Assembly (NCBI GenBank): GCA_028280575.1
Contig: JANQLN010000127.1
Span: 27,313 to 91,312, forward strand
DNA from: Clostridia bacterium
Lineage (GTDB): Bacteria; Bacillota; Clostridia; Acetivibrionales; STF1-152
Reading direction: 5' to 3'
Length of the DNA: 64,000 bases
Part shown: positions 15,511 through 53,679 of the stretch, piece after piece
Layout: the number at the start of each line of letters is the position of its first letter
Numbering within the stretch: the stretch's first letter is position 1
The notes under the pieces: model-generated
What the model saw: the letters and a program-made list of their open reading frames with translations, nothing else
Database searches by the model: none
What the model was told of the DNA's origin: nothing
Translations under genes and position numbers: made by a program

Positions 15511-15524
15511 GAGGGAGTATATTT

Positions 15525-24808: not shown

Positions 24809-27088
24809 TCATTGGTTCTGGTAAAGCTTTCTATATTCACCGGGGGTTTGTCCGACCAGCTGTTTGAATTTTTTAATGAAACTGGATACATCACTGTAGC
24901 CAATCTGTTCCACCACATTCTTAAGAGAAGCGTTTTCAGACCTTAGAAGCTCCTTTGCTTTTTCTATTTTCAGGCGGTTGATATATTGTGAAAGGGTCTG
25001 TCCGGCCTGGACCTTAAAATAGTGGCTCAAGTTGGAAATGGACATTCCAAAATCATCTGCCATGTTTTGAACAGAAAAACTATAATCCTGGTAGTTTGCA
25101 TGGATATATCCATAGATTCGTTTCATCATGCTCTCATGGCTGCCGGTTTTATCTTCCCGTATATAGCTGCATATGTCAAAGCAGATGCGTCTGACGGCTT
25201 CGGCAACTTCCTCCACCGTATGAAATTCCATGAGTAAAATGGTATCAGGATATTCACTTTTGCATTTTGCAAAGCCTTTATAGATTAGATAAGTGGTTTT
25301 GATGGCTGTATTAATAATATCAAAACACAGGCATCTGGCAACAAAAAGCGGAGTATTGTCTTCTTTGATAATCCGAATCAGCTTTATGATAATTTCTTCA
25401 ATTTTATCTATATTTCCCTGAAGAACGGATAGCTCCAATTCTTCCAATTCTTTCAGGGGATAATATTCAAGCCTTACGGCCCGTGCCATAACCTCATCAA
25501 AGAAGATTACCTTGTTCTTGCCTTTAACAAGCCTGTAATCAATAGAAGTAGATGCTTCTATATAGGATTTTCCTACCTGGTTTATCAGCCCGTATCTCTT
25601 ACCTACTCCAATGGTACTCTTGATTTTCCATTTTTCGTTCAGGTACTGCTGTATAAAAAGAAGCTGGATCTTAAGCATAGAATCACTGATTGTATCATGA
25701 GCCATTATGAATAAAATTTTATTGGCTTCAATGCTGCCCTTGCCATACCCTTCTATCTCGTCTGGAAATTTATCTTCTATCCTTTTGATTATTTCATTCT
25801 CCTGGTTACCTGTTAAGGAAGTGTTTCCATCTAATGAAATGACGACAACCCTATAATCAGGCTTCGTAAAACATATGCCTATATCCCTGCCACGGTTATT
25901 AAAATCCCTGATATTCTTGATATTGCCTTTCAGGAAATCCAATAGTAAAAATTCCTTTAAGGCCTCCCGGCTGTTTCTCATTTTTCCGGCCAGAACCTTG
26001 CCGTTAACCGTCAAATGTGTTAACGCAAGTTTAATGACATTAATCTCATTGTTCTCCATTGGAATGTGCCTCCAGCTTTCTTCTGCAAAAATCTTTAATT
26101 TTTTGATGGGATTGTAGTTTACAGCCATTAAAAAGTAAATTGCCATGCCTCCAAGCAATATTATCATGACGGTACCTAGAAGGAATTTTGTTCTGACATC
26201 GGATACTTTTTTCAATATAACCTCAGAAGGAACAAGGGTTACGTAGGTCCAGCCCGTATTCCCGGACCGGACATAAGAGAGGCAGTATTTGCTATTACCA
26301 ATTTCTATAATCCGTGTACCCGTATTCCTGATTTTAGATATTAAGCTTTTAAACTCAGTACTCTCCAGGTAATCATCATGCCACAGGGAAGTTACAATAC
26401 CGCCTTCGTGGTCCAATATTACGGTATTCGCTTCATCCTTACCCAGATTATTTCTTATCAGATATTTTAAAGAATCCTCATCAATTAAAAAAATAATAGT
26501 TCCATAAGGCTTTGCGCTATTGGAAGGAAATGGATACATGTAGGTAATAAAGCGCTTCTTTTCATTTTTGAGAACCGTAACATCTTCTGCAAGGCGCAGC
26601 GTTGGACGGGAAATGGAATTGATGTCCTCATTAAAGCTGCTGAAATTCCAATGGGCATAGTTATAGACAAAGCCAATAAATGACGGCAGGGTATAGGAGC
26701 TGATTGAAGAATAAATATAGCTGTCATTCCGAAAGTAAAAACAAATCTCATGTATAAAATCATTGGTAATATCATAATCGAAAAGAATTTTTTTTATATC
26801 AATAATATTTGTAGGATTATGTTTTATGGAGTACGGAAGGAATTCCTCATTGCCGTACAATTGTAATGGGATTTTTTTAAGCTCTTCCATCTGCTGTTCA
26901 ACTATATGATTTACCTTTATCATAGCATCAAGATTGCGGTTTAATATTTCCTCTTCCAGAATATTCATAAAATAATTGTATACAAGTATACCCATTATTA
27001 ATGAGGGAATCAATAAAATAATCATATAAGAAATGAGGTATTTAAAAAATACCCTGGAGAAACTGTGAAAATTTTTCAAACAAACCAC
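24809..27088 (-). CDS. Membrane-anchored AraC-family regulator (TM - extracytoplasmic sensor - TM - linker - AraC HTH)
   Basis: 759 aa with two hydrophobic segments (res ~15-37 and ~300-322) bracketing a ~260-aa loop, and a C-terminal AraC HTH (GYSDVSSFIKKFKQLVGQTPGEY). The start is ambiguous (GTG 27088, or TTG 27079 preceded by GGGGTGG). Confidence 0.8.
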   Translation of the reverse strand: MVCLKNFHSFSRVFFKYLISYMIILLIPSLIMGILVYNYFMNILEEEILNRNLDAMIKVNHIVEQQMEELKKIPLQLYGNEEFLPYSIKHNPTNIIDIKKILFDYDITNDFIHEICFYFRNDSYIYSSISSYTLPSFIGFVYNYAHWNFSSFNEDINSISRPTLRLAEDVTVLKNEKKRFITYMYPFPSNSAKPYGTIIFLIDEDSLKYLIRNNLGKDEANTVILDHEGGIVTSLWHDDYLESTEFKSLISKIRNTGTRIIEIGNSKYCLSYVRSGNTGWTYVTLVPSEVILKKVSDVRTKFLLGTVMIILLGGMAIYFLMAVNYNPIKKLKIFAEESWRHIPMENNEINVIKLALTHLTVNGKVLAGKMRNSREALKEFLLLDFLKGNIKNIRDFNNRGRDIGICFTKPDYRVVVISLDGNTSLTGNQENEIIKRIEDKFPDEIEGYGKGSIEANKILFIMAHDTISDSMLKIQLLFIQQYLNEKWKIKSTIGVGKRYGLINQVGKSYIEASTSIDYRLVKGKNKVIFFDEVMARAVRLEYYPLKELEELELSVLQGNIDKIEEIIIKLIRIIKEDNTPLFVARCLCFDIINTAIKTTYLIYKGFAKCKSEYPDTILLMEFHTVEEVAEAVRRICFDICSYIREDKTGSHESMMKRIYGYIHANYQDYSFSVQNMADDFGMSISNLSHYFKVQAGQTLSQYINRLKIEKAKELLRSENASLKNVVEQIGYSDVSSFIKKFKQLVGQTPGEYRKLYQNQ

Positions 27089-27377
27089 CCCGGTTAAAAG
27101 CTTTTAATAAGGATATAGATAAACTCTTTAAAATCTGATATGCATATATTTTATCATGTTAAAAATTATTTTTCAAATAAATACAAGTATTATTAAAATA
27201 TCACCTATTTTCAAATATGACATATATTAATGAGTCCGGGAACCTTCTTAAATATAGAAAACCGACAGGTGCCATTACGGCTTCAAAAGCGGCAAGGAGC
27301 TTGAAATATACTTATTTACACCACCGCTTTAATCTTATATAATGAGCCTGAATACAAAATGCCCGGGAGGATAAACG

Positions 27378-28334
27378 ATGAGAGGTGTAAAGGAAGCAAC
27401 CCTGGAAATACATTTTAAAAAGCAATACCGGTTAAAAAGGTGGAAGCGGATGAAAGGAAACTATGAGCTTTACTTATTTTTACTTCCCACTGTTGTATAC
27501 TTTTTAATATTCCATTACGGTCCCATGTATGGAATACAAATTGCTTTTAAAAATTTTATTGCTGTTGAAGGAATATGGGGAAGCCCCTGGGTAGGAATTG
27601 ACCATTTTCAAAGGTTTTTTAATTCCTTCCAGTTCTGGACGCTTTTGAGGAACACTCTCGGACTCAGTGTTTATGGCCTGGCAGCCGGATTTCCTATCCC
27701 TATTATACTGGCATTATTATTAAATCAGCTAAGCAGCAAAAAATACAAAAAAATTGTACAGACAGTTACTTATGCGCCGCATTTTATCTCTACCGTAGTA
27801 TTAGTGGGAACTATGTTTGTATTTTTATCACCTAGAAACGGACTTGTCAATCATATTATTGAGCTGTTTGGAGGGGAGCCTGTCTTCTTTATGGCCCGGC
27901 CCGAATGGTTCCAGACACTGTATGTATTTTCCGGCATATGGCAAAATGCCGGATGGGGTACTATTATATATTTAGCATCATTAAGCGGAATCAGTCCTGA
28001 CTTACATGAAGCAGCAATTATGGATGGGGCAGGACGGATACAGAGGATATGGCATATTGATTTGCCTGGAATTATGCCGACCGCAGTAATTATACTCATA
28101 CTGAACCTGGGAAGGATTATGGGTGTAGGATTTGAAAAGGCATATTTGATGCAAACTGCCTTGAACCTGGATTCTTCTGAAATTATTGCTACGTATGTAT
28201 ACAAGGTAGGCTTGCTGAACGCCCAGTTTAGTTTCTCCGCAGCAGTAGGGCTCTTTAATGCGGTTGTCAACTTGATTTTGTTGGTGTCGGTAAATAAAAT
28301 CGCTAAAACCATAGGAGAAACCAGCTTGTGGTAA
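27378..28334 (+). CDS. Sugar ABC transporter permease (LplB-like)
   Basis: 318 aa with RBS GGGAGG and EAA loop HEAAIMDGAGRIQRIW. Confidence 0.9.
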   Translation: MRGVKEATLEIHFKKQYRLKRWKRMKGNYELYLFLLPTVVYFLIFHYGPMYGIQIAFKNFIAVEGIWGSPWVGIDHFQRFFNSFQFWTLLRNTLGLSVYGLAAGFPIPIILALLLNQLSSKKYKKIVQTVTYAPHFISTVVLVGTMFVFLSPRNGLVNHIIELFGGEPVFFMARPEWFQTLYVFSGIWQNAGWGTIIYLASLSGISPDLHEAAIMDGAGRIQRIWHIDLPGIMPTAVIILILNLGRIMGVGFEKAYLMQTALNLDSSEIIATYVYKVGLLNAQFSFSAAVGLFNAVVNLILLVSVNKIAKTIGETSLW

Positions 28335-28347
28335 AAGGAGGTATATT

Positions 28348-29232
28348 GTGATTACAAAAAGCCATGAAGATGTTACATTTGATATTATAAATTATTTAAT
28401 TCTTACAGTATTTTTGTTGGCCGTATTATACCCTTTATATTTTGTCGCCATAGCTTCCTTCAGTGACCCGAATATGGTCAATGCGGGCAAGGTCTGGCTT
28501 ATACCCCAGGGAATAACCTTTGAAGGGTATCAAAGAATACTGGATGATCCTCAAATATGGATTGGATACCGGAATTCCCTTTTCTATACGGTTTTTGGAA
28601 CGGCACTTAATGTAGTTTTAACCCTGACGGCTGCTTATGCGTTATCCAGGAAGGACTTAGACGGTAGAAATATTGTTATGGCAATGCTGGTTTTTACAAT
28701 GTTGTTTGGGGGCGGGTTGATTCCCAGGTATCTTGTCGTAAAAAATTTGAAAATGCTGGATACGGTATGGGCAATGCTGATCCCCAATGCAGTCGGGGTA
28801 TGGAATATTATTATTTGCAGGACTTTTTTTCAATCCACAATACCCGATGAAATGCTGGACGCAGCTATGATGGACGGGTGCAGCAGCAGCAGGTTTTTTA
28901 TTCGCATTGTCTTACCCTTGTCTTCGGCTCTCATTGCGGTTATGATTCTCTTTTATGGCGTAAGCCATTGGAATGCATTTTTTGATGCACTGATTTTCTT
29001 AAGGAATCAGAAGCTTTATCCCCTGCAATTGATTTTAAGGGAAATCCTCATCGAAAACGAAGTGGAGCTTCAAATGATGGAAGACGCCGAAACAGTGGCA
29101 GCCCAGCAGCGGATTGCCGAGACAATTAAATATGGTGTTATCATGGTGGCCAGTATACCCATGTTAATTCTATATCCCTTCTTGCAAAAATACTTTGTTA
29201 AAGGTGTTATGATAGGTGCAATTAAAGGCTGA
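28348..29232 (+). CDS. Sugar ABC transporter permease (LplC-like)
   Basis: 294 aa with RBS AAGGAGG and EAA loop LDAAMMDGCSSSRFF. Confidence 0.9.
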   Translation: MITKSHEDVTFDIINYLILTVFLLAVLYPLYFVAIASFSDPNMVNAGKVWLIPQGITFEGYQRILDDPQIWIGYRNSLFYTVFGTALNVVLTLTAAYALSRKDLDGRNIVMAMLVFTMLFGGGLIPRYLVVKNLKMLDTVWAMLIPNAVGVWNIIICRTFFQSTIPDEMLDAAMMDGCSSSRFFIRIVLPLSSALIAVMILFYGVSHWNAFFDALIFLRNQKLYPLQLILREILIENEVELQMMEDAETVAAQQRIAETIKYGVIMVASIPMLILYPFLQKYFVKGVMIGAIKG

Positions 29233-29315
29233 GCGAAAAAAATACAATAAGGTGTCTTGCCATACAATTGTGGCCGGACGCCCTTGTATAAAAAAATCAT
29301 TAAGGAGGAGAAAAA

Positions 29316-30974
29316 ATGCAAATCAAGAAATTTCTATCATGGATGCTGGCATTGCTGATGGTTGTGTCTCTTGGCTTATCCGGCTGCAAGCAGCAGGCAT
29401 CTACGGGTGAGCCATCCGGTGAGGAGGTAAAGGAAAACGGAAATAATAGGGACAGCGGAAAGGAATCTGAGGTCGGAATGCTGGGCAATATGTACAAAAC
29501 AGGATTGCCTATTGTAAAGGACAAGGTTACTTTAAGGATTGCTGCCCGAAAAAGACCGCTTCATTCCAAGGAATTTAATGATATGATTGTGCCTGGAAAA
29601 TTTGAAGAGAAAACCAATGTGCACATTGAATGGGATGCTATCCCCGGCACGGCATGGGAACAAAAAAAGAACCTTATGTTTGCCGCCGACGACCTGCCGG
29701 ATGTTTTCTTTAAGGGTTTGACCCCTTCGGATGAAATCAACTACGGCGGGCAGGGAATGCTTATTGCACTGGATAAATTGATTGGCGAATGGGCCCCCAA
29801 TATCAAAAATCTTCTGGAAAAGAGGCCTCAGGTCAAAAAAATGTGCACCACTCCCAGCGGCAATATATATGCACTGCCTCACGTTGAAGAACAGGTTTTT
29901 TTGCTAAACCCCGACAATTTCTTTATTAATAAGACATGGCTGGATAAGCTGGACCTGCCAATTCCTCAAACCACCGATGAATTTTATAAAGTTTTAAAGG
30001 CATTTAAGCAGGAAGACCCAAATGGAAACGGCACGGATGATGAAATCCCTCTGAGCTTCAGATTTGGAAATAAGGCTGATGGTATATACTCGCTCTTTGG
30101 CTCATTCGGCTTGCTGGACAACCAGCAGCATATCATTGTTGAGAACGGCAAAGTTGTTTTTACCGCCGATAAGCCTGAGCATAAAGAGGCCCTCAAGTAT
30201 TTTTATATGCTGTACCAAGAAGGTCTCATTGACCAGGAGGCCTTTACTCAAGACTCTAAGCAATACACTGCCAAGGGGCATAATGAACCTATGCTGTTGG
30301 GTGCATTTATAACTTGGTCCCATGAAAATATATGCGGCACTGAGCGGGCTTACAATAATTATGCCTTCCAGCCTCCATTAAAGGGCCCGGGAGGACACAT
30401 GATGTGGAACAAATATAATGCGGGAGTGGGAAGAGGCGGATTTGCCATTACCTCAGCCAACGAATATCCGGAAATCACCATGAGATGGATTAATGAAGTA
30501 TATTTACCAGAAAATTCTTTGGAATGGTCTTTTGGACCCTTCGGGCACAATCTCAAAAAAAATGCCGATGGCACCTACGAATATATTGAGACTCCATCCG
30601 GAAAATCCTATGGAGAATTCAGGCATTCGGAGACAGTGGGGTCATCAGCACCTGCAGGCCTCTTAAAGGAGACTTTCGACAGGCTTAAACCTATGGCGGC
30701 TGTGAAAGCAAAGACAGAAAGGTATATGGTATACAAGCCCTACTTCCCCGAAGATATATATCCGCTTGTTTACTACACATCTGAACAGGAGCAGCTGCTC
30801 TCAACCCTCAGGACCGATATTGAGCAATATATCAATAAAATGCAGGCAAAATGGATAATTGAAGGCGGTATTGATAAGGATTGGGATGATTATATCAAGC
30901 AGTTGGACAAGATGAGGCTTAAAGAGCTTTTAAAAATTTACCAGGATGCTTTTAACACATTCAACAAGGAATGA
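29316..30974 (+). CDS. Large extracellular solute-binding lipoprotein (LplA-like)
   Basis: 552 aa with lipobox LSGC. The size and pattern are typical of the ~550-aa Firmicute oligosaccharide-binding proteins. Confidence 0.9.
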   Translation: MQIKKFLSWMLALLMVVSLGLSGCKQQASTGEPSGEEVKENGNNRDSGKESEVGMLGNMYKTGLPIVKDKVTLRIAARKRPLHSKEFNDMIVPGKFEEKTNVHIEWDAIPGTAWEQKKNLMFAADDLPDVFFKGLTPSDEINYGGQGMLIALDKLIGEWAPNIKNLLEKRPQVKKMCTTPSGNIYALPHVEEQVFLLNPDNFFINKTWLDKLDLPIPQTTDEFYKVLKAFKQEDPNGNGTDDEIPLSFRFGNKADGIYSLFGSFGLLDNQQHIIVENGKVVFTADKPEHKEALKYFYMLYQEGLIDQEAFTQDSKQYTAKGHNEPMLLGAFITWSHENICGTERAYNNYAFQPPLKGPGGHMMWNKYNAGVGRGGFAITSANEYPEITMRWINEVYLPENSLEWSFGPFGHNLKKNADGTYEYIETPSGKSYGEFRHSETVGSSAPAGLLKETFDRLKPMAAVKAKTERYMVYKPYFPEDIYPLVYYTSEQEQLLSTLRTDIEQYINKMQAKWIIEGGIDKDWDDYIKQLDKMRLKELLKIYQDAFNTFNKE

Positions 30975-35286: not shown

Positions 35287-36267
35287 CTACTCCTTCTGCC
35301 AGTCCTTTTGCAGGGTTATCCTGACGGCATATTCCCTTTCCAGGCTTGATTTGATTACCGTCAGCCTGTATTCCACTTCAGTGCCTGCCGGAATGTGAAA
35401 AGGCCTTTCATTACTAAAAACATCCGTCATGAATCTATGAATTACCCTGTTCTCATTCTTAATTTCTTCTGTTGTTTTCCATTCTCTGATGTCTTTTTTT
35501 TCAAAGCTTCCATCCGGCCTTTTTATTTCCTGGATATTAAGCTCCGGGAAGGTTATCATTTCTATCCTGTACTTATAATCGTCCGAATAATCATCAATGT
35601 TATCTATTGATATCTCATACCACACCTTGCCCAGATTTCCCATATTGGTAAGTATGCCAATTTCCGGCTCCACAAAGGGTATTATCCTTTTGCTTTCATC
35701 TATAAGCCTGGCTGCCATGGTAACCGCTTCCGCTCTTGTAGCATTTTCCTTGTAGCCGAAGCTTCCGTCGGGCCTTCCCGTTATGATGCCCTTGTTAAAT
35801 GCCTTTAACACAAATTCCCTGTAGCTATGTGAGGTATCGTTAAAATCTTTTATTAAAACTGACAATTCGGCAATATCGACGGGATATTTTTCATCCATGG
35901 CTCTAACAACCATACGTGCAATTTCACCCCTGGTTATATTCACCCTGACATCGTCAAATTCTCCCTTTTTAATATATCCCCTGGAAACAGCTTCATTTAT
36001 AAAATTATCGGCCCAATAGCCTGTTTCCGAATTTCCGGGATCAATTTTTAACGCCCTGAGCAGCAATGCGGTAAACTCTGCCCTTGTTATATTGTTGTCG
36101 GGCTTGAATGTTCCGTCCGGATAGCCATTTACAGCTCTAATGCTTACCAGATGCCTGATATGATTATTTGCCCAGTGTAAATCAATATCCGACAGTGCAA
36201 AATTAGCGGAAAACAAGCTATATAAAATTAATAGTACAACCATTATACTAAAACTGATTTTTTTCAC
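35287..36267 (-). CDS. S-layer homology (SLH) domain protein with uncharacterised C-terminal domain
   Basis: Signal peptide, then three SLH-like repeats (HWANNHIRHLVSIRAVNGYPDGTFKPDNNITRAEF; YWADNFINEAVSRGYIK…; …FNKGIITGRPDGSFGYKENATRAEA). The start is set at GTG 36267 (AAGGAG 8 nt upstream). Confidence 0.85.
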   Translation of the reverse strand: MKKISFSIMVVLLILYSLFSANFALSDIDLHWANNHIRHLVSIRAVNGYPDGTFKPDNNITRAEFTALLLRALKIDPGNSETGYWADNFINEAVSRGYIKKGEFDDVRVNITRGEIARMVVRAMDEKYPVDIAELSVLIKDFNDTSHSYREFVLKAFNKGIITGRPDGSFGYKENATRAEAVTMAARLIDESKRIIPFVEPEIGILTNMGNLGKVWYEISIDNIDDYSDDYKYRIEMITFPELNIQEIKRPDGSFEKKDIREWKTTEEIKNENRVIHRFMTDVFSNERPFHIPAGTEVEYRLTVIKSSLEREYAVRITLQKDWQKE

Positions 36268-36607
36268 GGGACTCACTCCTTTTTTGCTCTTACCGGAATA
36301 ATCCTGGTAATTTTATTACACATATTTTGATTTATACGCCATGTATGAAACACGGTGAAGCTGGCCGGATAACAGTTAAAATCTTTTCACACAATTATTT
36401 ATGCTCGATTCCAGATGCTGATCCTTTATGCTGCCGCCGGGTAAATTTTACTTCATAATCCCAAGCATTATGACATTTTAAATCCACTAAAACCTCTGTG
36501 GTATTTCAAAGGCCATAATGCAAGGATTAAAGTCGTTTCATATAGAAGGTGCATGGTTTTGAAATAAACATTATTCCAAAACATGTTATTGCCGTCAATG
36601 AAATATT

Positions 36608-36660
36608 CCGGCACTTACTTGTTCAGTCTTTTCTTTCACATTTATGAAAGTAAGTGCCGG
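36608..36660 (-). terminator. Possible terminator hairpin downstream of the vWA gene
   Basis: The 11-bp stem ccggcacttac/gtaagtgccgg has a 31-nt loop. A shorter hairpin cctgcg…cgcagg lies closer to the stop. There is no strong U-tract. Confidence 0.3.
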
Positions 36661-36733
36661 ATTACCCAATCTACGCCCTGCCCTGCGAAAATTCACCGCA
36701 GGCGGCTGACATAAAGTTTAGAGCTGATAGTGT

Positions 36734-39172
36734 CTAGTTTATATCTATTTCCGGATCCAATACCGTAATAGTTTTCGTGCCGTATATTTCCTTGCCGTCT
36801 TTCGTTTGCGCCCTTGCATTTACTATGGCAGAGCCAATTTCTTTTGCGGTAATGGCTCCTGTTGCACTGTCAACTTCCAGGACAGCTTCATCGGAGGAAG
36901 TCCATACCCATGGCGTCAATTCAATGTCAATTCCTGCAGGCTCCAAATCAACGGTCAATTCAGCGCTTTTCCACAACTCAAGCGTATCGTTTCCGTTTAT
37001 TACTATATTTACAGCCTTTACATTACAGGAATCTGAATATCTGCCCAGGAATTCTCCTTCTATCTGGCCGCCAGAGCTTATTTTGATTTCAAAAGAGGCA
37101 AAGCCGGCAATATCATAATTATTGCTTTCATCCGGATCGCCCATTGAAGCTATAAGGGGTACTGTTATTACAAATGACCCGTTATTGTTATTTATAAGCT
37201 CACTCATAACTGCTCCCGCATTATCGGCAACAGCCGGTTCGCTTGAAACTGTGTCACCTATTTTTATATTGTCACCGGAGCCGTAAATAATATTGTTCCG
37301 TAAAGTGTCATACCCGCTTCCCCCCAGGGAAATAGGCTGGTATACACCCTTTCCGCCGCTGCCGTCCTTTGACAGTACTATTTTTTCGCCAACGGCAAAG
37401 TCATCGTCTTCCAGAACCAAAGGCCTGACACCCATAATTCCGCTTACGGCATTCATATAAGTTGCCGTAATAGATGCTTCTCCGGGGCTTTCGGCTTTTA
37501 TCACACCAGACCCGTCAACGGTAACTATGGAATCCATACTTGATGTCCAGCTGAAGCTGCTCGATTCTCTTTCGGGAATGGTAACGGCATTTAGCTCGTA
37601 TTCCTCGCCGACCATCAATATGAGTTCATCAGGCAAGCCCGTAACTCCGTCTATACCGTCATATACATTTACGGTACATAATCCCGGAGCTCCCTTATAG
37701 TCTGAATCTTTAGGAGCGGCCTCAATATAAGCGTTCCCTGTCTCCAATGCTTTTACCCTGACCGACGAAACACCCGTGGATTCATCATAATCCGTTGATT
37801 CAATCTTTAATATACCTTCATTGGAAGAGGTCCATACAACATCTTTTTCATCCGCATTATCAGGCTGTACCTCAGCGGTTATATCAAACATCTGGCCTTT
37901 CTTTACATTCAAATATTGAGGCTCTACCACAAGGCTTGTTACAGGCTGTTTAACAACAACGGTTATTTCATCTTCAATGACAGCATCCTTTTCAAATTCA
38001 AAGGGGTCAGTATAAGAAACAGCCAGCTCATCAAGATTAAATACGCCCTTATTTTCATATTCAACGCTTATCTTGCCGTTCCAAGGAGTTACGGAATACT
38101 TTCCTGTAGATTCATTTCTTACAAGGGCCATATTTTCAATTTCTCCCGTTACCCTGTATGAACCGCCTTCAAGCACTTCAAGGTCAAATCCCTCTGGCAC
38201 ATCCTTAACCTTTACGCCTTCAGGGAATGTTTGTTCAAATTCCACATGCTTAATGGGGAAGCTGGATATAATCTGGTTTTTTATCTGGTTATTGTAAATA
38301 TCGTTTATATCCACAGATGATGTAGCCACATAGTAGTTGTTCCCGTTTTCAACCTCTGCCGCGCCGCAGGCCAGGGCAATGTTCTGAAGCTCATTGGATG
38401 TTCCCGTAGTAAATCCTATAATAAAGGGTGTAATGCTGTCGCCAGCTATCATTTTCCCTATTTCTACGGCATAATCGGTAGCCCTTTCTTTGTTATAGTA
38501 AAAATATCTGCCCCTTCCGCTGTTTGTTCTAAAAGCGGAAGTCGAATTTTTTTCAATAGTTGTGTAATAGTTAGGCTCTCCGTCAGTCATTATGATTATA
38601 TACTGTGCAGCCTCGCTGTCGTCATCCAGCATCCAGTAGCCCCTGCGCATCCCGTCACCGATATTGGTTGATCCGCCTTCGTCAATACCATTTACATATT
38701 CAATCAGATCCTCAACATCATCTTCATCCTTCATGTCCTTAAGGCCTGTGGGCCTGCCTGCCCTTCCAAAATACTCAACTATGCCTATCTTTGCCTTTTT
38801 ACCCTTGAAATTATTGATAAAGTTTACGGCACACTCCTTAACAACATCCATCCTGCTTTTGTTGCCTTCAAGCTTATTTTCCATACTTCCCGAACTATCA
38901 ATTACCAATACTATTTCCTTTTCTATCAGGTATTTCTCCTGAATTATTTCAGGCCGGATCTCAAATTCATCACCATGAATTGTGTAGCTTATATCCTGGA
39001 AATCTCCCACCAGCAGTGAGCTCTTATCCGGCTCCAAAACCCTTTTAACCCTCATATAATCATCAGACCTGTAATCCTCAATAGTACCGCTTAAACCAAA
39101 ACTGGCAGTATAAAAAAGATTAAACAGCAGTGATATAACTAAAACCAATGTCAAATATGATTTGACTTTCAT
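36734..39172 (-). CDS. Secreted von Willebrand factor A (vWA) domain protein with multiple bacterial Ig-like (Big_2) domains
   Basis: 812 aa with a Sec signal peptide and MIDAS motif DSSGS, plus downstream GGSTNIGDG and MTDGEPN. It has at least three Big_2-like repeats (…VVWTSSNEGILKIES…, …FSWTSSMDSIVTVDGSGVIKA…, …WVWTSSDEAVLEVDSATGAITA…). I saw no LPXTG, SLH or TM anchor. Confidence 0.85.
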   Translation of the reverse strand: MKVKSYLTLVLVISLLFNLFYTASFGLSGTIEDYRSDDYMRVKRVLEPDKSSLLVGDFQDISYTIHGDEFEIRPEIIQEKYLIEKEIVLVIDSSGSMENKLEGNKSRMDVVKECAVNFINNFKGKKAKIGIVEYFGRAGRPTGLKDMKDEDDVEDLIEYVNGIDEGGSTNIGDGMRRGYWMLDDDSEAAQYIIIMTDGEPNYYTTIEKNSTSAFRTNSGRGRYFYYNKERATDYAVEIGKMIAGDSITPFIIGFTTGTSNELQNIALACGAAEVENGNNYYVATSSVDINDIYNNQIKNQIISSFPIKHVEFEQTFPEGVKVKDVPEGFDLEVLEGGSYRVTGEIENMALVRNESTGKYSVTPWNGKISVEYENKGVFNLDELAVSYTDPFEFEKDAVIEDEITVVVKQPVTSLVVEPQYLNVKKGQMFDITAEVQPDNADEKDVVWTSSNEGILKIESTDYDESTGVSSVRVKALETGNAYIEAAPKDSDYKGAPGLCTVNVYDGIDGVTGLPDELILMVGEEYELNAVTIPERESSSFSWTSSMDSIVTVDGSGVIKAESPGEASITATYMNAVSGIMGVRPLVLEDDDFAVGEKIVLSKDGSGGKGVYQPISLGGSGYDTLRNNIIYGSGDNIKIGDTVSSEPAVADNAGAVMSELINNNNGSFVITVPLIASMGDPDESNNYDIAGFASFEIKISSGGQIEGEFLGRYSDSCNVKAVNIVINGNDTLELWKSAELTVDLEPAGIDIELTPWVWTSSDEAVLEVDSATGAITAKEIGSAIVNARAQTKDGKEIYGTKTITVLDPEIDIN

Positions 39173-39236
39173 AACTAACCCTCCTAAAATCCTTATTTGG
39201 CCAATTTTATATTAAAGACCATCCTTATGCTAAAAT

Positions 39237-40544
39237 TCAATGCAGCTTTTTACTTTCATTCAAAGTTATCCCGCTGATTTTCAACCTCCCTTCATTGCCG
39301 GCATCGCCGGAAAGAGTAACATTATAATTAAATCTGCATGTGCTTTCCACTCCTTTTATTGTTCCATCCTTTGTCATTACTTCTGTCTCAAATATAACAA
39401 AATATTTCTTTTTATTTTGTGTGTATGACAGGCAAGGTATTATTTCCAGCTTGCCGTATTTATCACTGCTAAAGCTTAACATATCTATCTGCAGGGGCAT
39501 TGAATCGTAGTCAAACCTTTCCTTGTATTCGTTTGTTATTTCCATAAGGTCGGAAAACCTTTTTTCCTCATCCATTTCAATTGTCTGGTCCAAAAATCCG
39601 CTAAATTCCAGCTGATCCTTTTCCCAGCAGGGATACATCAGGAGCATCCTTTTCCTGTCAAGGCTTTTAAGCCCGGTGAAAAAATCCAGGACCAGCTCCA
39701 TTTCCCTCTCATATACAATTCCATCTTCCTTGTTTACGTATTCATTGCTGCCCTCTCTTTTGTCAAAATTAATATACGGCAGAGCTTGTGCAAAATCATT
39801 GTTGAAAAGCAGCAGCCTGTCCTTAAGGGTTGAATGTGTATTTGCTTCCTTTACAGTTACAAGCTTGTAGATGCCGTCGATTTTCTCCAGCTCCACCTCA
39901 TAATTGAGGAGCATTCTGATGCGGTCCTCAACAATTTCTTCCTCTTCAGGTTCTTCCGGTCCTGCAGGCCTTTCCCCGTCCTCCGGCTCTTCAATTCGTA
40001 TGTATATTCCATGCTCGTCTTGTGTAAATTGACTTTCAAAGGCACCTGCAGGTATGCATTTGCCCAGTGCTTCGACCCTGACGGAATAATACACCGAGTC
40101 ATTGCTCTTTCCTAAAAAATCTGCGTCTATATTGGGCATTTCATCTTCCATATCCTTGTATTCCTTCATTTCATAGTCAATAACCGTCAAGCCGTTTATT
40201 TCAAAATACCTGGGAAAATGAATGCCTATTTCGGTATTGCCTTCTGCCAATTCCAGGGTTTTTTCCGAAATGAAATCCCTTATCCATGACGGAACATTTC
40301 CCATAGCAGTATATAAGCCATATTCTTCAATAGGAACCGAATACAGGCTTGAAAAATAATCATGTATCAGCTTTTTTATCCTGTTTTTTTCTTCATTTGA
40401 TATGACCTGTGGAATATTAACAACGGATTCCCCTGCATCTGCCGGTGGTTTACTTTCGCTTTCCTTCCCCGGACCGCAGCCTGCTGTTAAAAATAGAGCT
40501 GCTGCCAATATTGCCGCTGTCATCGTATTTCTAATACCCTTCAT
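39237..40544 (-). CDS. Lipoprotein of unknown function
   Basis: 435 aa with lipobox LTAGC, acidic tract PEEPEEEEIVED, and RBS GAGGTG. I recognise no family. Confidence 0.7.
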   Translation of the reverse strand: MKGIRNTMTAAILAAALFLTAGCGPGKESESKPPADAGESVVNIPQVISNEEKNRIKKLIHDYFSSLYSVPIEEYGLYTAMGNVPSWIRDFISEKTLELAEGNTEIGIHFPRYFEINGLTVIDYEMKEYKDMEDEMPNIDADFLGKSNDSVYYSVRVEALGKCIPAGAFESQFTQDEHGIYIRIEEPEDGERPAGPEEPEEEEIVEDRIRMLLNYEVELEKIDGIYKLVTVKEANTHSTLKDRLLLFNNDFAQALPYINFDKREGSNEYVNKEDGIVYEREMELVLDFFTGLKSLDRKRMLLMYPCWEKDQLEFSGFLDQTIEMDEEKRFSDLMEITNEYKERFDYDSMPLQIDMLSFSSDKYGKLEIIPCLSYTQNKKKYFVIFETEVMTKDGTIKGVESTCRFNYNVTLSGDAGNEGRLKISGITLNESKKLH

Positions 40545-40556
40545 ATTTTCACCTCA

Positions 40557-42890
40557 TTAAAAAATCGAATATAAATCCAGTCCCTGGCCCAAGAATATAT
40601 CCAATAATATTTCCCTGCCTGTCTCAGGGTCTGCGTCAGGGAAATGTATCCCCGCTTCCCCGCTGCTTATTTGAATTGCAGCATATCCGCCGCTGTCCAA
40701 GACACCCAGGTTTGAGCCGTCTTCCCTGATCCTTGGAGCCCTGTGGGCATATTTTATCCCGCCTATTTCAACATCTTCCGCCGCAGAGCCTGCCACGTAC
40801 CCGGGACCCGGGTCATAACCCCTTCCTGCGGCCACTATGGCGCCGTTTACAATTGCACCGTTCCTTAAAACCACCTTTCCCGTAGTAAAAATAATTCCAT
40901 TAAAAACCGTTCCGTTTAATTCAAGTATTTTATCAGGGTCCGTATTTATGACAAGAAAGTATTTATCCAAGGCCCATGGGTTATTTGCTATATCATTGTA
41001 CGGATATGCAGCATCACTTAGGTTTCCGCTTCCCGCTTCCAGGACATATGGGCTGCCCGAAAGCGCCAGGTTGCCAAGGGCGGTCATTATGGTACTGAAG
41101 GTTTCCGTCGACCTGTGCTCAATGACATCGGAAGCACTTGATTTTGAAGGATCATAGGTATGCCTTGAAACAAAGACATTGGCCATATCCAGCAAGCCCG
41201 GCTTTAACAGATTGTTAAGAATTCCCGGTATGTCCCAGCAGTACCCCGCATCCCATTCAAAGGAATCATCCATGTACCCGTTCCAGAATCCTTTCCACGT
41301 GCCCATGCCCAGAGGGGGGTCAATATTGTCAAGTACATAATTATCAGTAAGCAGTTTTGCTCTGCCCAATTCCGATAAATCCTCATCGGACTTTGATATG
41401 AAATACATCCTGTCGTTGGAAGCAATCTCATAATTGCAGTACCCTTGTATCTTTTCCGGCACCGGTCTGTCAAACATATTTGTATTATTTGTCCCCGCCA
41501 GCCTGGCCATATCAATACTGTTCATCCAGCTTTCAATATTTGCCTGTACATCGGCGGGATTCACGCTCCATGGCCGGGTATTCCATACCTGGAACAAATT
41601 ACTATAACCATAAGCTCCACTGTCATATCCCCCGCTGATTATCCAATCCCTGTAAAGACCGGTTAAATCAATAGGACACAGCTTATATAAAGGGGCATCA
41701 TTGTACATGGCTATTGAAGCATCCTCTATCTCATACAAAACATCGCCGCTGTCAGTCTCAACCCTGAAGGTGCTGCCATTTATCATAACGGAGCCGTTTA
41801 TTACAATCCTTGATCTTTTAGCCATGCTTGAATTCGACCAATGTACTATGGCACTGTTTACTATGGCGCTGGAATTGTCATGGTGCACGGCATCCGTACC
41901 GTCCGACAATCCAAAATAGCTGCCGTTTATCGCTATAACGGAATCTTCACCGTTTATTTCAAGGTCGTCAAATGTATACGCATTCCTGTATACGGCTATC
42001 CGGTTATTCCTGCCGAATACATGTACTCCCTGTGCAACCGCGTCCCTGTATACATATATGGAGCTGTTGTCCTGTGTCTGGTTGTACTCCCCGGTCCTTA
42101 TAAAGCTCCTGCTGTATGCATTGCCGTTTATGTACATTGTTGAATTGTCCTTTGCATATATCCCGCCGTAATAATACTGTTCTGGCTGGGCGAGTACTTC
42201 TGGAGAGCTGCCGTAAACATGCATGTCGCCGGTGACATTCAACGTAGAGCTGCCGCTGGCCATAAAATCCCCCACCGTATAAACAGGTCCTAAGAGCCTG
42301 AAAGCTTTTGGAAAGCTCACCTCGAACTCTTTTTGTGAAAATACCTTTTTGTCTCCCGAAACATATGGCTTTACTATATATTTCGAATCAGCAAAAACGC
42401 CGATATTTATTTTTATTTTTGAAGGGCTTTCAGCAGGATTGTAGCTATGGCCCATATACTTGATATCAATACTGACATCAGCAGTATTTTCAGTATTGTT
42501 GGCAACATTGATACCGTCAAAAGCACCGTTTATATTGAGGGCGCCGATGTAGGGCCTTAAAACTTCGTTTACCATGCTTCTGGCAAACAGCTCGTTATCC
42601 CCCGTATATGTTATCCCATTAGAGGCTGCGAGTGTTTCATTGGAGCATATGCTTCCAAGACTGTCGAAACACTTTTGTATTGCACTTTCCGCAGCATAAT
42701 AAGAGTAGTCCATATGCCCGTTGGTCTTGCTCGCCCTGAAAACCTGCATAGACGTATCCAGCAAAACCCCGGCCAGCAGGATGACCGATGCCATTAATAC
42801 AATTACAAACAGCATTGTGGAACCTTTTTTATTATTTATATTACCTAGCATAAGCTCTTTTACACCACCCAACGTTCTCAAAAACATCAT
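40557..42890 (-). CDS. Large pilin-like protein with PilX/GspK-type N-terminal hydrophobic helix lacking Glu5
   Basis: 777 aa. NKKG/STMLFVIVLMASVILLAGVLLDT resembles a prepilin/PilX_N segment but has Phe, not Glu, at +5. The remainder is Asn/Gly/Tyr-rich with repeated NG-x-hydrophobic strands (e.g. LNGTVFNGIIFTTGKVVLRNGAIVNGAIVAAG). The start is ambiguous (42890 or 42851). Confidence 0.6.
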   Translation of the reverse strand: MMFLRTLGGVKELMLGNINNKKGSTMLFVIVLMASVILLAGVLLDTSMQVFRASKTNGHMDYSYYAAESAIQKCFDSLGSICSNETLAASNGITYTGDNELFARSMVNEVLRPYIGALNINGAFDGINVANNTENTADVSIDIKYMGHSYNPAESPSKIKINIGVFADSKYIVKPYVSGDKKVFSQKEFEVSFPKAFRLLGPVYTVGDFMASGSSTLNVTGDMHVYGSSPEVLAQPEQYYYGGIYAKDNSTMYINGNAYSRSFIRTGEYNQTQDNSSIYVYRDAVAQGVHVFGRNNRIAVYRNAYTFDDLEINGEDSVIAINGSYFGLSDGTDAVHHDNSSAIVNSAIVHWSNSSMAKRSRIVINGSVMINGSTFRVETDSGDVLYEIEDASIAMYNDAPLYKLCPIDLTGLYRDWIISGGYDSGAYGYSNLFQVWNTRPWSVNPADVQANIESWMNSIDMARLAGTNNTNMFDRPVPEKIQGYCNYEIASNDRMYFISKSDEDLSELGRAKLLTDNYVLDNIDPPLGMGTWKGFWNGYMDDSFEWDAGYCWDIPGILNNLLKPGLLDMANVFVSRHTYDPSKSSASDVIEHRSTETFSTIMTALGNLALSGSPYVLEAGSGNLSDAAYPYNDIANNPWALDKYFLVINTDPDKILELNGTVFNGIIFTTGKVVLRNGAIVNGAIVAAGRGYDPGPGYVAGSAAEDVEIGGIKYAHRAPRIREDGSNLGVLDSGGYAAIQISSGEAGIHFPDADPETGREILLDIFLGQGLDLYSIF

Positions 42891-42926: not shown

Positions 42927-43394
42927 CTAAGGAATAAGCCTGTTTATGTTAATCCTGAGCTTCTGGAATACTTCCCCATCCATTTTTTTAACGGTAATCA
43001 GGTATTCACAGGTATCGGAAAATCCGTGGATCTCTCCAAAATCCTTGTCCCTTACCGCGTCAAACTTAAACCTTTTGCTTATTTCTCCGATTTCGTTCAC
43101 TATCTTAAGGTCCGAACCGTTTATGTCGTCCTTCAATACCACGTCCCCTCCGCCGTAAGACGGTATCGTATTTCCTGCCCCGTATTTAACGGAAGCAATG
43201 ACATTTTCCTTTATTGTCCGCATGACAGAATTAAGCTCCTGCCTTTCCCCTGTCATTCTAATCAGTATTGCGGAATTTAAAAACGAAGTTGTCAGCGGAA
43301 GTGATATGATTCCCAGTATTGTGATTGATACCAATACTTCTATCAAGCTGCTTCCCTTATTGTTTTTTCTAATAATTTTTTGCATAAACCTCAC
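42927..43394 (-). CDS. Minor type IV pilin (prepilin-type N-terminal cleavage/methylation domain)
   Basis: …KNNKG/SSLIEVLVSITILGIISLP has Gly-1, Glu+5 and a hydrophobic helix. The alternative start is ATG at 43385. Confidence 0.8.
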   Translation of the reverse strand: MRFMQKIIRKNNKGSSLIEVLVSITILGIISLPLTTSFLNSAILIRMTGERQELNSVMRTIKENVIASVKYGAGNTIPSYGGGDVVLKDDINGSDLKIVNEIGEISKRFKFDAVRDKDFGEIHGFSDTCEYLITVKKMDGEVFQKLRININRLIP

Positions 43395-45198: not shown

Positions 45199-45774
45199 CT
45201 ATGAAATAAATTCCTTGTATTTAACGGAAAATTCCGTTATTACAGGTTTTTCAATATTCCTGTTCCTGTGTATTCTTGTATTGGTTGCTTCCGGTTTTAC
45301 CCCCAGAATCACCTTGTCGCCAATTTTCTCAAATCTTGAAGGCATATATTTTTTTGCAGGCTCCGGCGGCGCAGCCGGTACACTGACAACAGCGGTATCC
45401 AGCCCTCCCAGTACTTCCTCGAAGCTTCCCGGAGCACCCGGAAGGTCGGTTTTAACATACAGCCTCTCATCCTCAATCTTCCATGTTTTTTCCTTGCCCG
45501 TATCATCGTAGTCGTGATACCTCAGCACCAGTATGCTCCTTGAGTTGTCGGGCTCATATACAACCTTATAGTATGCGGCCTGCTCAATATCCTTTCTTAT
45601 GCGCATAACCACGCCGTCCACCTTGTCATACTGGTACAAAAACTTCCTGTAGGTATTGCATGTGCGGATGCCGTCAACAAATATCATGTACACTATGGGC
45701 ATGAGGACGGCAATTATGCCCATTACAACTACAACCTCCAGTATTCCCATACCTTTTCTGTTTGAAAGCTTCAT
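45199..45774 (-). CDS. Minor type IV pilin (prepilin-type N-terminal domain)
   Basis: MKLSNRKG/MGILEVVVVMGIIAVLMP has Gly-1 and Glu+5. I prefer the start at 45774 (AGGTGG 7 nt upstream). Confidence 0.8.
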   Translation of the reverse strand: MKLSNRKGMGILEVVVVMGIIAVLMPIVYMIFVDGIRTCNTYRKFLYQYDKVDGVVMRIRKDIEQAAYYKVVYEPDNSRSILVLRYHDYDDTGKEKTWKIEDERLYVKTDLPGAPGSFEEVLGGLDTAVVSVPAAPPEPAKKYMPSRFEKIGDKVILGVKPEATNTRIHRNRNIEKPVITEFSVKYKEFIS

Positions 45775-45863
45775 AAACATACCACCTGAAAAATACCGCG
45801 CCCCTGCCCCTTTAGAAGCAGGGGACGGCGAATTATTATGCTAATTGGTATTATGTACAAGCG

Positions 45864-46409
45864 TCATGGGTGAATAGTTACAATACAAAGGGAAGTCTCA
45901 GTAGCAGGTACGACCTTAACAGTTTGAAGGTCAGGATATATATCAATAGCCCATCCCAAATTCTTATTATGCTGTGGCTCGTAAGCCTGTACATTTACAG
46001 CTGCATCTTTAGCCTCATCAGGATCCTTTCTTGACAGTACCGGCCCGTAAACTCTATCGGTAACGCCATCATTAATAACATCCATCAAAGCTTGAATAAG
46101 AACCGTGGATGCAGTTCCATCTGAAACACCACTAATATTATCCAAACCCCAATCATCTGAATCCGTACAATATGTCAGCATTGCCTTTTCCAGGTTTACC
46201 GCCATCTGCTCGTCGGCACTCTTTTTGCTGTTTGCAAGCACTCCTCCGAACATGTTGAATGCAATTGCGGCAAGTACTCCCATTATTGCTATGACTACAA
46301 GAAGCTCAACCAGTGAAAATCCGTTGTCTTTTTTCAGCTTTCTTAAAAAGGACTGTACCCCCTTCCTTTCAACAAACCTTTTTTTAACATCTTTCATAAT
46401 AGCAACCAT
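45864..46409 (-). CDS. pilA: Major type IV pilin with unusually long leader peptide
   Basis: …KKDNG/FSLVELLVVIAIMGVLAAIAFNMF is a canonical class III signal peptide. It has a 30-residue leader, a 151-aa mature protein with two Cys (TYCTD, SLCIV), and RBS GAAAGGAG. Confidence 0.85.
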   Translation of the reverse strand: MVAIMKDVKKRFVERKGVQSFLRKLKKDNGFSLVELLVVIAIMGVLAAIAFNMFGGVLANSKKSADEQMAVNLEKAMLTYCTDSDDWGLDNISGVSDGTASTVLIQALMDVINDGVTDRVYGPVLSRKDPDEAKDAAVNVQAYEPQHNKNLGWAIDIYPDLQTVKVVPATETSLCIVTIHP

Positions 46410-52218: not shown

Positions 52219-52282
52219 TTTTGTACTCCTAACGTTTTATTCGTCATAGAATAATTATATTGTATTCCCATGATGTTGTTAA

Positions 52283-52518: not shown

Positions 52519-53679
52519 CTACTCAATTATAACCGAGCTGCCTATCCTGACCTTGGAAATATCTCCTATAGGATTACGTCCGATTGTTACTTTTTTCAAA
52601 CGGGTTAAATTTTTAAGAGGCTTGACATCAGTTATCCTGTTATCGTACAGGTCTAAATTTGTCAGGCTGCTTAGCCCCCCCAGCGGGTTAAGGTCTATGA
52701 TGTTATTGTCACTTAGTTTAAGCTCGGACAAATTGATCAAGGATGCCAGCGGATTTACATCGGATATATAATTGTTCCCTAAATTCAAGCTGTTTAAATT
52801 GGTCAATGTCCCGATAGGTGTAACATCCTGGATGTCATTATGAAAAAGGTTAAGGGTTGAGAGCTTTTCCAGGTTGCTCAACGGGGCAACATCCATAATA
52901 TGGTTTCCGGACATGGATAATGTTTCTAAATGGCTCATTCCCCGGATTGTACTTAAATCATTAATGTAATTATTGTCCAGGTATAAATGCTTAAGTCCGG
53001 CAATGCTGCTTAAGGAGTTTATACTGATAATGTGGTTGTCTTTTATGCTGAGGCTTGTTATTTTTTTCAAATCCCTAAGAAAGCTTATATTGTTTATCTT
53101 ATTATCATCCATTGTCAATTTGGTAAGATTTCCGAAAACCTGCAAGCCGTCAAGGGTTTTTATTGATAATCCGCTAATATCCAATTCCGTTATGTGAGAT
53201 ACATCTTCAACAAGCAATATCCCCGACGGTTTTTTCACTATCTTTCTTATGGCATCTTCCAGCTTACTGTCTTCAAAGTACAGCAAACCTGCCCTTTTGC
53301 AGATGATTTTCAGCTTATCCTTAGAAAAATTTCCTTCCACATCATCTATGGATATTTTTCCTGTTTTAACCTGCAGTGCTATAAAGCTATACAGGTCTGC
53401 TTCATATGAGGTTTCTTCCTGGACCACATCCTGGGATTTTTCCCCTTCGCCGGGATTAAATGAAATTGATACTCCTTTCGATAAAAAAGCGCTGTACCCT
53501 ATTATCCCCACCAGTAACAAAATAATGGCAACAACCAGTATCCCTATGGGAGACTTTATTTTCATGCTTATATTTTTCTTTTTCCCTTTCCCTTTCCCTT
53601 TCCCCTTCCCTTTTTCATCCTCATCCATTTTCAAGCCTTCATAATACTCTTTTGTACTGTCATTTAACAAACTGTTCAT
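52519..53679 (-). CDS. Membrane-anchored leucine-rich repeat (internalin-like) protein with cytoplasmic Lys-Gly repeat
   Basis: The start is set at MNSLLND (RBS GGGGAG). It contains EDEKGKGKGKGKGKKK, a single TM (IGILVVAIILLLVGIIGY), then ~10 tandem 22-residue LRRs (LxxLxxLxLxxNxIxDxxPL). Confidence 0.85.
   Translation of the reverse strand: MNSLLNDSTKEYYEGLKMDEDEKGKGKGKGKGKKKNISMKIKSPIGILVVAIILLLVGIIGYSAFLSKGVSISFNPGEGEKSQDVVQEETSYEADLYSFIALQVKTGKISIDDVEGNFSKDKLKIICKRAGLLYFEDSKLEDAIRKIVKKPSGILLVEDVSHITELDISGLSIKTLDGLQVFGNLTKLTMDDNKINNISFLRDLKKITSLSIKDNHIISINSLSSIAGLKHLYLDNNYINDLSTIRGMSHLETLSMSGNHIMDVAPLSNLEKLSTLNLFHNDIQDVTPIGTLTNLNSLNLGNNYISDVNPLASLINLSELKLSDNNIIDLNPLGGLSSLTNLDLYDNRITDVKPLKNLTRLKKVTIGRNPIGDISKVRIGSSVIIE

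Follow-up and report, generated by a model that had tools for sequence, protein, structure and literature searches.

A giant Glu5-less pilin-like protein and a lipoprotein form a conserved pair in clostridial type IV pilus operons, accompanied by an optional vWA protein

How Gram-positive type IV pili carry adhesins, and how bulky tip subunits pass through a thick cell wall and a surface layer (S-layer), is to our knowledge known only from Streptococcus sanguinis. The question is raised anew by a pilus operon in a plant-fibre-degrading Clostridium relative (Clostridia bacterium, contig JANQLN010000127.1). Its last three genes encode a giant pilin-like protein of 777 residues without the glutamate at position +5 (Glu5), a lipoprotein of 435 residues and a Sec-secreted protein of 812 residues with a von Willebrand factor A (vWA) domain, which we call g777, lip435 and vWA812. 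They lie in a 64-kb stretch of the contig, the window, within which all positions are numbered. The original prediction, made from the letters of this DNA, took the three proteins for one self-contained pilus tip complex of a cap, an assembly or anchoring factor and an adhesin. Here we report that the three are real genes with conserved homologues, that g777 and lip435 are a fixed, almost obligate pair inside the pilus operon, and that the vWA gene is an optional, lineage-specific cassette, the trio thus being two nested units. The explanation we prefer, at somewhat better than even confidence, is that the trio forms the weakly expressed far end of a 12-gene type IVa pilus operon and works by a mechanism of three steps set out below. 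What the analysis shows is how the genes are ordered and how far this order is conserved, which motifs and domains the proteins have and, as model predictions, how they fold; the motifs meant are those at the N-termini.

The gene order of the operon is pilB-pilT-pilM-pilC-pilA followed, beyond a hairpin, by mp193-pilN-pilO-mp155-g777-lip435-vWA812, where mp193 and mp155 are minor pilins. The open reading frames (ORFs) confirmed the three consecutive genes, all on the minus strand, with gaps of 36 bp from the mp155 stop codon to the g777 start, 12 bp between g777 and lip435 and 64 bp between lip435 and vWA812. Homologues of g777 begin about 10 residues ahead of the leader Gly, and the start is therefore probably Met14 (ATG at 42851), which would widen the first gap from 36 to 75 bp. 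Terminator-like hairpins were sought in the three gaps and none was found, in agreement with the proposed absence of hairpins between these genes. Good Shine-Dalgarno sites precede lip435 (GAGGTG) and vWA812 (AGGAGG), and the 12-bp gap together with the GAGGTG site suggests that the expression of g777 and lip435 is coupled.

A scan with the g777 alignment, taking one genome per species, returned 51 loci, all from Ruminiclostridium, Acetivibrio, Pseudobacteroides, Thermoclostridium and related uncultured Clostridia, the closest of them about 50% identical to the window, which thus stems from a relative outside the genomes sampled. The pilB, T, C, A, N and O genes lay upstream on the same strand in each of the 30 loci with at least 9 kb of upstream sequence, which bears out the assignment of the trio to the pilus operon. 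A lip435 homologue with a lipobox stood directly downstream of the g777 homologue in 43 of the 44 loci with at least 1.5 kb downstream. The vWA812 homologue behaved differently: of 32 loci whose downstream sequence sufficed, only 9 had it, and the other 23 keep g777 and lip435 without it. With g777 and lip435 fixed in the pilus operon and the vWA gene optional, the notion of the trio as one self-contained unit had to be given up.

Where the vWA gene is missing, the content of its slot varies. In Ruminiclostridium the slot is filled by pilD and a DUF5057 protein of about 1060 residues; in one such locus (L005) pilD (13381-14175) comes right after the lipoprotein gene, as it does in L009 and L010, and is followed by a protein with DUF5057 as its only domain (14299-17499). 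In an Acetivibrio locus (L045), the cluster gives way to ClpP-like and FtsK genes without any pilus-related gene in the slot. No DUF5057 gene was found in the 64-kb window.

Next, we considered what kind of protein g777 is. Its N-terminus, ...NNKKG/STMLFVIVLMASVILLAG (KKG/STMLF; the slash follows the leader Gly), consists of a basic leader ending in Gly and about 20 hydrophobic residues with Phe at +5. Among 108 full-length relatives this prepilin layout is recognizable in 98, of which 91 have Gly and 7 have Ala at -1; position +5 is occupied by Thr, Ile, Ser, Leu, Met, Val, Gly, Ala, Asn or Pro, and in none of the 98 by Glu or Asp. The protein thus departs from the class III signal peptide at the acidic +5 residue, an exception expected of cap subunits. 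PilX_N was matched by 7 of 27 relatives (best 4.4e-5), Bactofilin, a beta-helix family, weakly by 5 of the 27, and the homologue in R. cellobioparum carries the NCBI name 'pilus assembly PilX family protein'. These results uphold the description of g777 as pilin-like and Glu5-less. Lack of Glu5 is a hallmark of cap subunits, as in GspK, and because of it g777 would be able to serve only as the first subunit and not sit below another pilin. We are fairly confident that g777 is a cap pilin.

The AlphaFold2 (AF2) model of g777, built from a 27-sequence alignment (predicted local distance difference test (pLDDT) 87.4, predicted template modelling score (pTM) 0.79), has a 59-residue N-terminal helix (24-82), a second helix (99-120) and a three-stranded sheet (136-192), i.e. 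the predicted long helix plus antiparallel sheet of type IV pilins. Beyond the sheet the model continues for about 600 residues, mainly as short strands (203-390 and 645-750) interrupted by a helical region, and looks beta-solenoid-like. Foldseek found no match at E <= 0.001 for this model in the PDB or in BFVD and recovered none of GspK, PilX and ComZ. A profile search of PDB sequences yielded nothing beyond a hit of the N-terminal helix on a geopilin at 0.063, and Pfam and NCBIfam contained no family for g777, as a whole or in sub-regions. For g777, lip435, the 575-705 insert of vWA812 and the C-terminal domain of SLH329 (see below), searches of the two family databases with the whole proteins and seven sub-regions gave sub-threshold noise only (CBM64 0.031, Ice_binding 0.13, DUF2846 0.0061). 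g777 is hence a pilin-like protein of modular build that lacks Glu5, and no relative of its module has been solved. Assignments of the module to a tapirin, ComZ or phage tailspike fold found no support, as Foldseek matched neither PDB nor BFVD entries at the above threshold.

ComZ of Thermus thermophilus is a large minor pilin with a beta-solenoid module (PMC8179133), and a rival reading takes the module of g777 for a DNA receptor like ComZ and the pilus for one that serves mainly DNA uptake (competence). mp155 also weakly matches ComGE, although under the curated cut-off (Table 1). However, ComZ was not recovered among PDB structures at E <= 0.001, pilT and the pilM-N-O set are typical of type IVa pili, and no other competence genes were seen beside the cluster, and we regard a competence pilus as very improbable.

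Among the systems that g777 resembles are those with a cap pilin. GspK of type II secretion and PilX/PilK of Gram-negative type IVa pili also have a prepilin N-terminus without Glu5, are encoded together with minor pilins bearing Glu5, and are oversized compared with other pilins owing to an extra module; some g777 relatives match PilX_N, although the g777 of the window does not. g777 is, however, 2-4 times larger than these proteins, its module has no structural match to GspK or any other PDB entry, and it is paired with a lipoprotein, which the GspK and PilX/PilK systems do not have. Another parallel is offered by PilB (vWA) and PilC (lectin) of S. sanguinis and by Thermus ComZ, which like g777 carry a bulky functional module on a pilin, presumably displayed at a monoderm pilus tip. 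In contrast to the modular pilins of S. sanguinis, the module-bearing g777 lacks Glu5 and its module matches nothing solved. That monoderm pili can have large modular minor pilins, and that vWA adhesins occur on pili, was already established (PMC8179133, PMC6916266).

The partner of g777, lip435, has the lipobox LTAG-C23, whose Cys is invariant in 44 relatives, and residues 24-48 after Cys23 form a disordered tether. The family is narrow: an exhaustive HMMER search of 1.84 billion representative proteins yielded 55 relatives, the full-length ones of about 370-450 residues. Word-indexed protein searches gave only two, and the family was recovered by tblastn of the loci and by the exhaustive search. 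No Pfam or NCBIfam family and, by profile search, no PDB sequence matched lip435. Its AF2 model (pLDDT 88.3, pTM 0.81) consists of two halves, each made of helices followed by a curved sheet. Structure comparison, which returned nothing for g777, gave a match here: below 0.001, Foldseek listed only the four chains of 3ub1 (E about 1e-5, probability 1.0), entitled 'Ntf2 like protein involved in plasmid conjugation', and other NTF2-like folds ranked after it. We take 3ub1 to be TcpC, encoded by plasmid pCW3 of Clostridium perfringens, a scaffold of the VirB8 kind that contains two NTF2-like domains. The model thus predicts for lip435 a tandem NTF2-like fold that is closest to TcpC. Like TcpC and VirB8, lip435 would have consecutive NTF2-like domains outside the membrane, two by prediction; it differs from them in having no detectable sequence similarity, a lipid anchor in place of a transmembrane helix, and a place in a pilus rather than a conjugation operon. 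We know of no counterpart of a tandem NTF2-like lipoprotein in any described pilus system.

We then turned to the optional member. vWA812 begins with MKVKSYLTLVLVISLLFNLFYTASFG, a Sec-type signal without the Gly-then-hydrophobic layout of pilins. Its vWA domain (residues 87-293, Pfam 3.4e-16; DNA 38294-38914) has a complete metal-ion-dependent adhesion site (MIDAS: D92, S94, S96, T169 and D197), the five residues of which are invariant in 10 relatives, and three Big_2 matches follow from Pfam (1.4e-22), as anticipated for a protein described as having a complete MIDAS and Ig-like domains. The protein also has an N-terminal beta-sandwich-like frame, and the flanks of the vWA domain (about 45-85 and 300-400) are conserved; an insert of 130 residues (575-705) belongs to no Pfam or NCBIfam family. 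Only the first 440 residues or so are common to the relatives, the C-terminal parts being different. Against PDB sequences, vWA812 matched mussel thread matrix protein 1 (2.6e-6) and the vWA domain of S. sanguinis PilB (5.4e-6). An alignment at 2e-10 was also obtained with a vWA pilin from a metagenome, whose own match to PilB extends over the pilin and vWA modules (3.6e-18).

Despite this relationship, vWA812 is a separate Sec-secreted protein and, unlike PilB, has neither a class III signal nor a pilin module. In design it also resembles PilY1/PilC of Gram-negative type IVa pili, which are likewise Sec-secreted non-pilins with an N-terminal vWA domain, are encoded beside minor pilin genes and are proposed to ride on a minor-pilin tip complex, as vWA812 may do. 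Instead of the C-terminal propeller of PilY1/PilC, vWA812 has a variable C-terminus with Big_2 domains, and it differs further by its constant SLH neighbour and by being optional in its group; Pfam likewise revealed no PilY1-type beta-propeller in six larger pilus-linked vWA relatives. As to TadG of Tad pili, vWA812 has no TadE/G-like pseudopilin segment by Pfam, and its cluster is of the pilB/pilT/pilC type, not tad.

To place the vWA lineage in a wider context, we scanned metagenomes with those 440 N-terminal residues that the vWA proteins have in common and obtained 80 loci. Of about 36 loci in which the upstream sequence reached 5 kb or more, about 31 had pil genes beside the vWA relatives, and at least 14 loci had g777 and lip435 directly upstream. 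With the PilB match, this agrees with the earlier assignment of the domain to the pilus-linked kind. In the first of two further arrangements (L054, L058, L073, L074, L085 and L097, whose ORFs and N-termini were inspected), pilA-pilM-N-O are followed by a Glu5 minor pilin, a giant Glu5-less pilin (700-850 residues), one or two Glu5 minor pilins and a giant non-pilin vWA protein (950-1850 residues); there is no lipoprotein gene. By hhalign, the g777 family aligned with the giant Glu5-less pilin of a more distant locus of this kind at only 49% probability (E 1.7e-4) over the beta-solenoid core, which suggests but does not show a wider family of giant Glu5-less pilins. The second arrangement (L098, L107, L109, L123, L125 and L084) runs pilB-T-C-A, a small Glu5-less pilin of about 150-170 residues, a vWA pilin of the S. 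sanguinis PilB type (L123 against PilB, 3.6e-18) and a large pilin of 456-1027 residues, the latter two reading as Glu5-bearing in most loci; the S. sanguinis arrangement thus appears to be widespread in uncultured bacteria. Judged from these neighbourhoods, the vWA lineage is generally pilus-associated; in some loci the domain is part of a pilin, in others it belongs to a protein secreted on its own.

One of the metagenomic loci (L085) encodes, at 9773-14446, a pilus-linked protein of 1557 residues in which vWA (106-231) and DUF5057 (953-1286) are fused. Because of this fusion, and because DUF5057 fills the vWA slot in Ruminiclostridium, the sequences suggest that DUF5057 is a pilus-associated surface domain.

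In the group of the window, an SLH protein gene adjoins essentially every vWA homologue. A conserved SLH family of about 370 residues is encoded directly upstream of the vWA gene, in many loci between the lipoprotein and vWA genes, and in several loci its gene overlaps the end of the lipoprotein gene. The subclade of the window (window, L002 and L008) has a different SLH protein directly downstream of the vWA gene. In the window this protein, SLH329, consists of an SLH region (residues about 29-200, two SLH stretches by Pfam) and a 130-residue C-terminal domain without a family match, and it is a candidate wall anchor or partner of vWA812. The claim that vWA812 lacks a wall anchor therefore stood only in part: no anchor domain was found within the protein, but with an SLH gene as constant neighbour it is not simply anchorless.

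In the mechanism we favour, we infer a tip location for g777, a chaperone role for lip435 and the final place of vWA812. First, g777 would act as a modular minor pilin of the GspK/PilX functional type and as the first subunit: together with the Glu5-bearing mp155 and mp193 it would prime assembly, stay at the pilus tip and display its module of about 600 residues there, for which plant polysaccharide or another cell surface is a guess as ligand. Second, lip435 would be tethered by its lipid and flexible linker to the outer membrane face (leaflet) at the pilus base and, by analogy with the tandem NTF2 scaffolds VirB8 and TcpC, keep the bulky g777 competent for assembly; we put this holding or scaffold role forward tentatively, a little short of an even chance. 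Third, vWA812 would be an accessory adhesin, secreted by Sec, that binds ligands through its MIDAS and works with the pilus as PilY1 does in Gram-negative bacteria; it would be attached to the g777 tip or, via the adjacent SLH protein, to the cell wall. A place for vWA812 at the tip is possible but somewhat doubtful, and, as the SLH gene is its constant neighbour, the cell wall is a serious alternative. vWA812 as cargo secreted by a pilus-like machine is unlikely in view of the protein's own Sec signal and of the pilT gene in the cluster.

Several observations weigh against this mechanism. The trio is known here from genes and predicted folds. Unlike pilA, mp193 and mp155, g777 of the window matched neither Pfam N_methyl nor TIGR02532 at E <= 0.1, and it did not match PilX_N (PF14341). 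As a tip subunit of 80 kDa it must get through the peptidoglycan and the S-layer, and tblastn found no prepilin peptidase gene in the 64-kb window. The template modelling scores (TM-scores) of lip435 with 3ub1 are low, 0.16-0.27, and hence establish a fold class for lip435 and no function. vWA812 shows neither a PilY1-type beta-propeller by Pfam nor a pilin signal, its gene is missing from most loci that have g777 and lip435, its tightest partner is the SLH gene and not g777, and a weak promoter-like site lies in the 64-bp gap ahead of it.

Two other explanations were weighed. The failure of g777 to match the Pfam pilin model would fit a role of g777 and lip435 as envelope-embedded machine parts, an uncleaved or base-resident bitopic protein with a VirB8-like scaffold, guiding the pilus through peptidoglycan and S-layer as a monoderm substitute for secretin-associated parts. 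VirB8/TcpC-like NTF2 proteins are envelope scaffolds in Gram-positive conjugation systems, and the fold match of lip435 is to such a protein. In addition, the pair is as conserved as the core machinery genes, and SLH proteins recur in these loci. On the other hand, the prepilin layout is exact, down to Gly at -1 in most relatives, the g777 gene stands among minor pilin genes, the lack of Glu5 marks a cap subunit, and no feature of a multimeric ring or channel is evident. We consider such machine parts improbable, and the cap pilin remains our preferred reading of g777.

The second explanation concerns vWA812, which could form with the SLH protein a wall-anchored adhesin or receptor that has only gene location or regulation in common with the pilus operon and never enters the filament, leaving g777 and lip435 as the only true pilus components. 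The constant SLH neighbour, often inserted between the lipoprotein and vWA genes and overlapping the lipoprotein end, argues for this possibility, as do the Sec-type signal, the absence of the vWA gene from 23 of 32 loci that retain the pair, and the promoter-like site. In contrast, relatives of the vWA domain are overwhelmingly pilus-linked, some being fused to Glu5 pilins; other lineages (L054, L073, L074, L085 and L097) have a giant vWA protein after the minor pilins without an SLH gene; and in the window itself the SLH and vWA genes are 457 bp and hairpins apart. We therefore hold a purely wall-borne vWA812 to be somewhat unlikely and keep to an accessory adhesin that works with the pilus.

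The pieces may also be read jointly. Monoderms would then own an equivalent of the Gram-negative tip machine of minor pilins plus PilY1, built from unrelated parts: a giant Glu5-less carrier pilin with a fold not in the PDB, a conjugation-derived, VirB8/TcpC-like lipoprotein for loading or holding, and a MIDAS adhesin that docks on the carrier or shuttles between the tip and an SLH wall anchor, with an exchangeable adhesin slot (vWA, DUF5057 or a fusion of both). We judge this joint reading rather unlikely in its entirety; if true, it would be, in cellulolytic clostridia, the long-sought non-cellulosomal device for attachment to plant fibre.

No description of such a system was found in the literature searched, and the view that the locus does not map onto a described one was not contradicted. 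The search brought up no study of the three proteins, and the top-ranked papers on these organisms did not contain the word PilX. A precedent in setting is that of the tapirins, likewise large secreted proteins of an unknown family, whose genes close a pilus locus of a Firmicute that degrades plant biomass (10.1101/359786). They have no sequence match to g777 or vWA812, the Foldseek values of g777 against the tapirins 4wa0 and 6n2c (E 0.57 and 0.74) are noise, and the only match to the NCBIfam tapirin model (NF051896) was a weak one at the N-terminus of mp155 (0.017). What is new are these families and their combination: a giant Glu5-less pilin with a module unmatched in the PDB, an obligatory NTF2-like lipoprotein partner, and an exchangeable slot (vWA, DUF5057 or nothing) coupled to SLH proteins. 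The locus defines two conserved families, whose window members match no curated Pfam or NCBIfam model and which occur throughout the industrially important cellulolytic Ruminiclostridium/Acetivibrio group. Pilus operons contain one vWA lineage both as a domain joined to a pilin and as a free secreted protein paired with an SLH anchor, which provides a natural comparison for how non-pilin adhesins couple to pili. If the module mediates attachment to plant fibre, it would be a target for the engineering of consolidated bioprocessing strains.

The features of the operon are collected in Table 1. The site upstream of pilB, found by consensus match, is a candidate operon promoter. The hairpin after pilA is likely to be an attenuator that sets a high ratio of major pilin to minor pilins and trio, and the downstream genes are therefore probably expressed at a low level by read-through. 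The two hairpins behind vWA812, of which the one at 36608-36660 is a perfect 13-bp stem followed by AAUAUUUCAUU, are the probable end of the operon.

Table 1. Positions of the pilus operon genes, putative expression signals and the adjacent SLH gene in the window
Feature	Positions	Strand	Basis and remarks
Promoter-like site, TTAACA-17-TATAAT	52254..52282	-	11/12 consensus matches, just upstream of pilB; consensus match only
pilB, extension ATPase, 751 residues	49963..52218	-	49-61% identity to the first gene of colinear clusters in related loci
pilT, retraction ATPase, 366 residues	48876..49976	-	Sequence and colinear clusters
pilM, 368 residues	47693..48799	-	Sequence and colinear clusters
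pilC, platform protein, 403 residues	46461..47672	-	Sequence and colinear clusters
pilA, major pilin, 181 residues, G/FSLVE	45864..46409	-	N_methyl 2.1e-9, TIGR02532 1.1e-8
GC-rich 10-bp hairpin with U-run, directly 3' of the pilA stop codon	45799..45820	-	z-score -3.2
mp193, minor pilin, G/MGILE, Glu5 present	45199..45780	-	Pilin motif models matched
pilN-like, 184 residues	44630..45184	-	PilN 0.0037 (under curated cut-off); position kept across loci
pilO-like, enlarged, 383 residues	43474..44625	-	Weak T2SSM match at N-terminus; synteny
mp155, minor pilin, G/SSLIE, Glu5 present	42927..43394	-	N_methyl 5.5e-7; ComGE 2.9e-5 (under curated cut-off)
g777, giant Glu5-less pilin-like protein, 777 residues	40557..42890	-	N-terminal layout, homologues, AF2 model
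lip435, lipoprotein, 435 residues	39237..40544	-	Lipobox, homologues, AF2 model
vWA812, Sec-secreted vWA/Big_2 protein, 812 residues	36734..39172	-	Pfam, homologues
Two hairpins 3' of the vWA stop codon (36682-36702 and 36608-36660)	36608..36702	-	z-score -4.1
SLH329, secreted SLH protein	35287..36276	-	Pfam; 457 bp beyond vWA812, outside the three-gene stretch

The pilO-like protein is twice as long as the pilN-like one, and its N-terminus alone is weakly T2SSM/PilO-like. PilO of monoderms is larger than PilN (PMC6916266), and the protein of the window matches such an enlarged monoderm PilO with an extra domain of no known function.

No RNA family of Rfam was found in the window, and no cohesin or dockerin genes were seen among the window ORFs tested. 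Sugar-utilization genes surround the pilus locus (5138-7207, 23006-24682, 12335-17045 and 24809-30974). Two of their products are enzymes, a GH42 beta-galactosidase and a GH123 protein; the others are two solute-binding proteins, a Cache-AraC regulator, and a Cache/HAMP histidine kinase together with its AraC-type response regulator. Immediately ahead of pilB and likewise on the minus strand, a gene at 52519-53715 encodes a protein with an N-terminal hydrophobic segment, probably a membrane anchor, leucine-rich repeats and a (Lys-Gly)n tract. Further on, at 54409-55746 (plus strand), lies the gene of a ZnuA-family metal-binding lipoprotein (Pfam 3e-70), followed by genes for an ABC ATPase and an ABC-3 permease. 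Inserted in the ZnuA-family protein are about 130 residues in which His, Asp, Glu and Cys abound, encoded by repeat DNA (54817-55209) in which an 18-nt unit occurs about 22 times (102 nt x 3.8).

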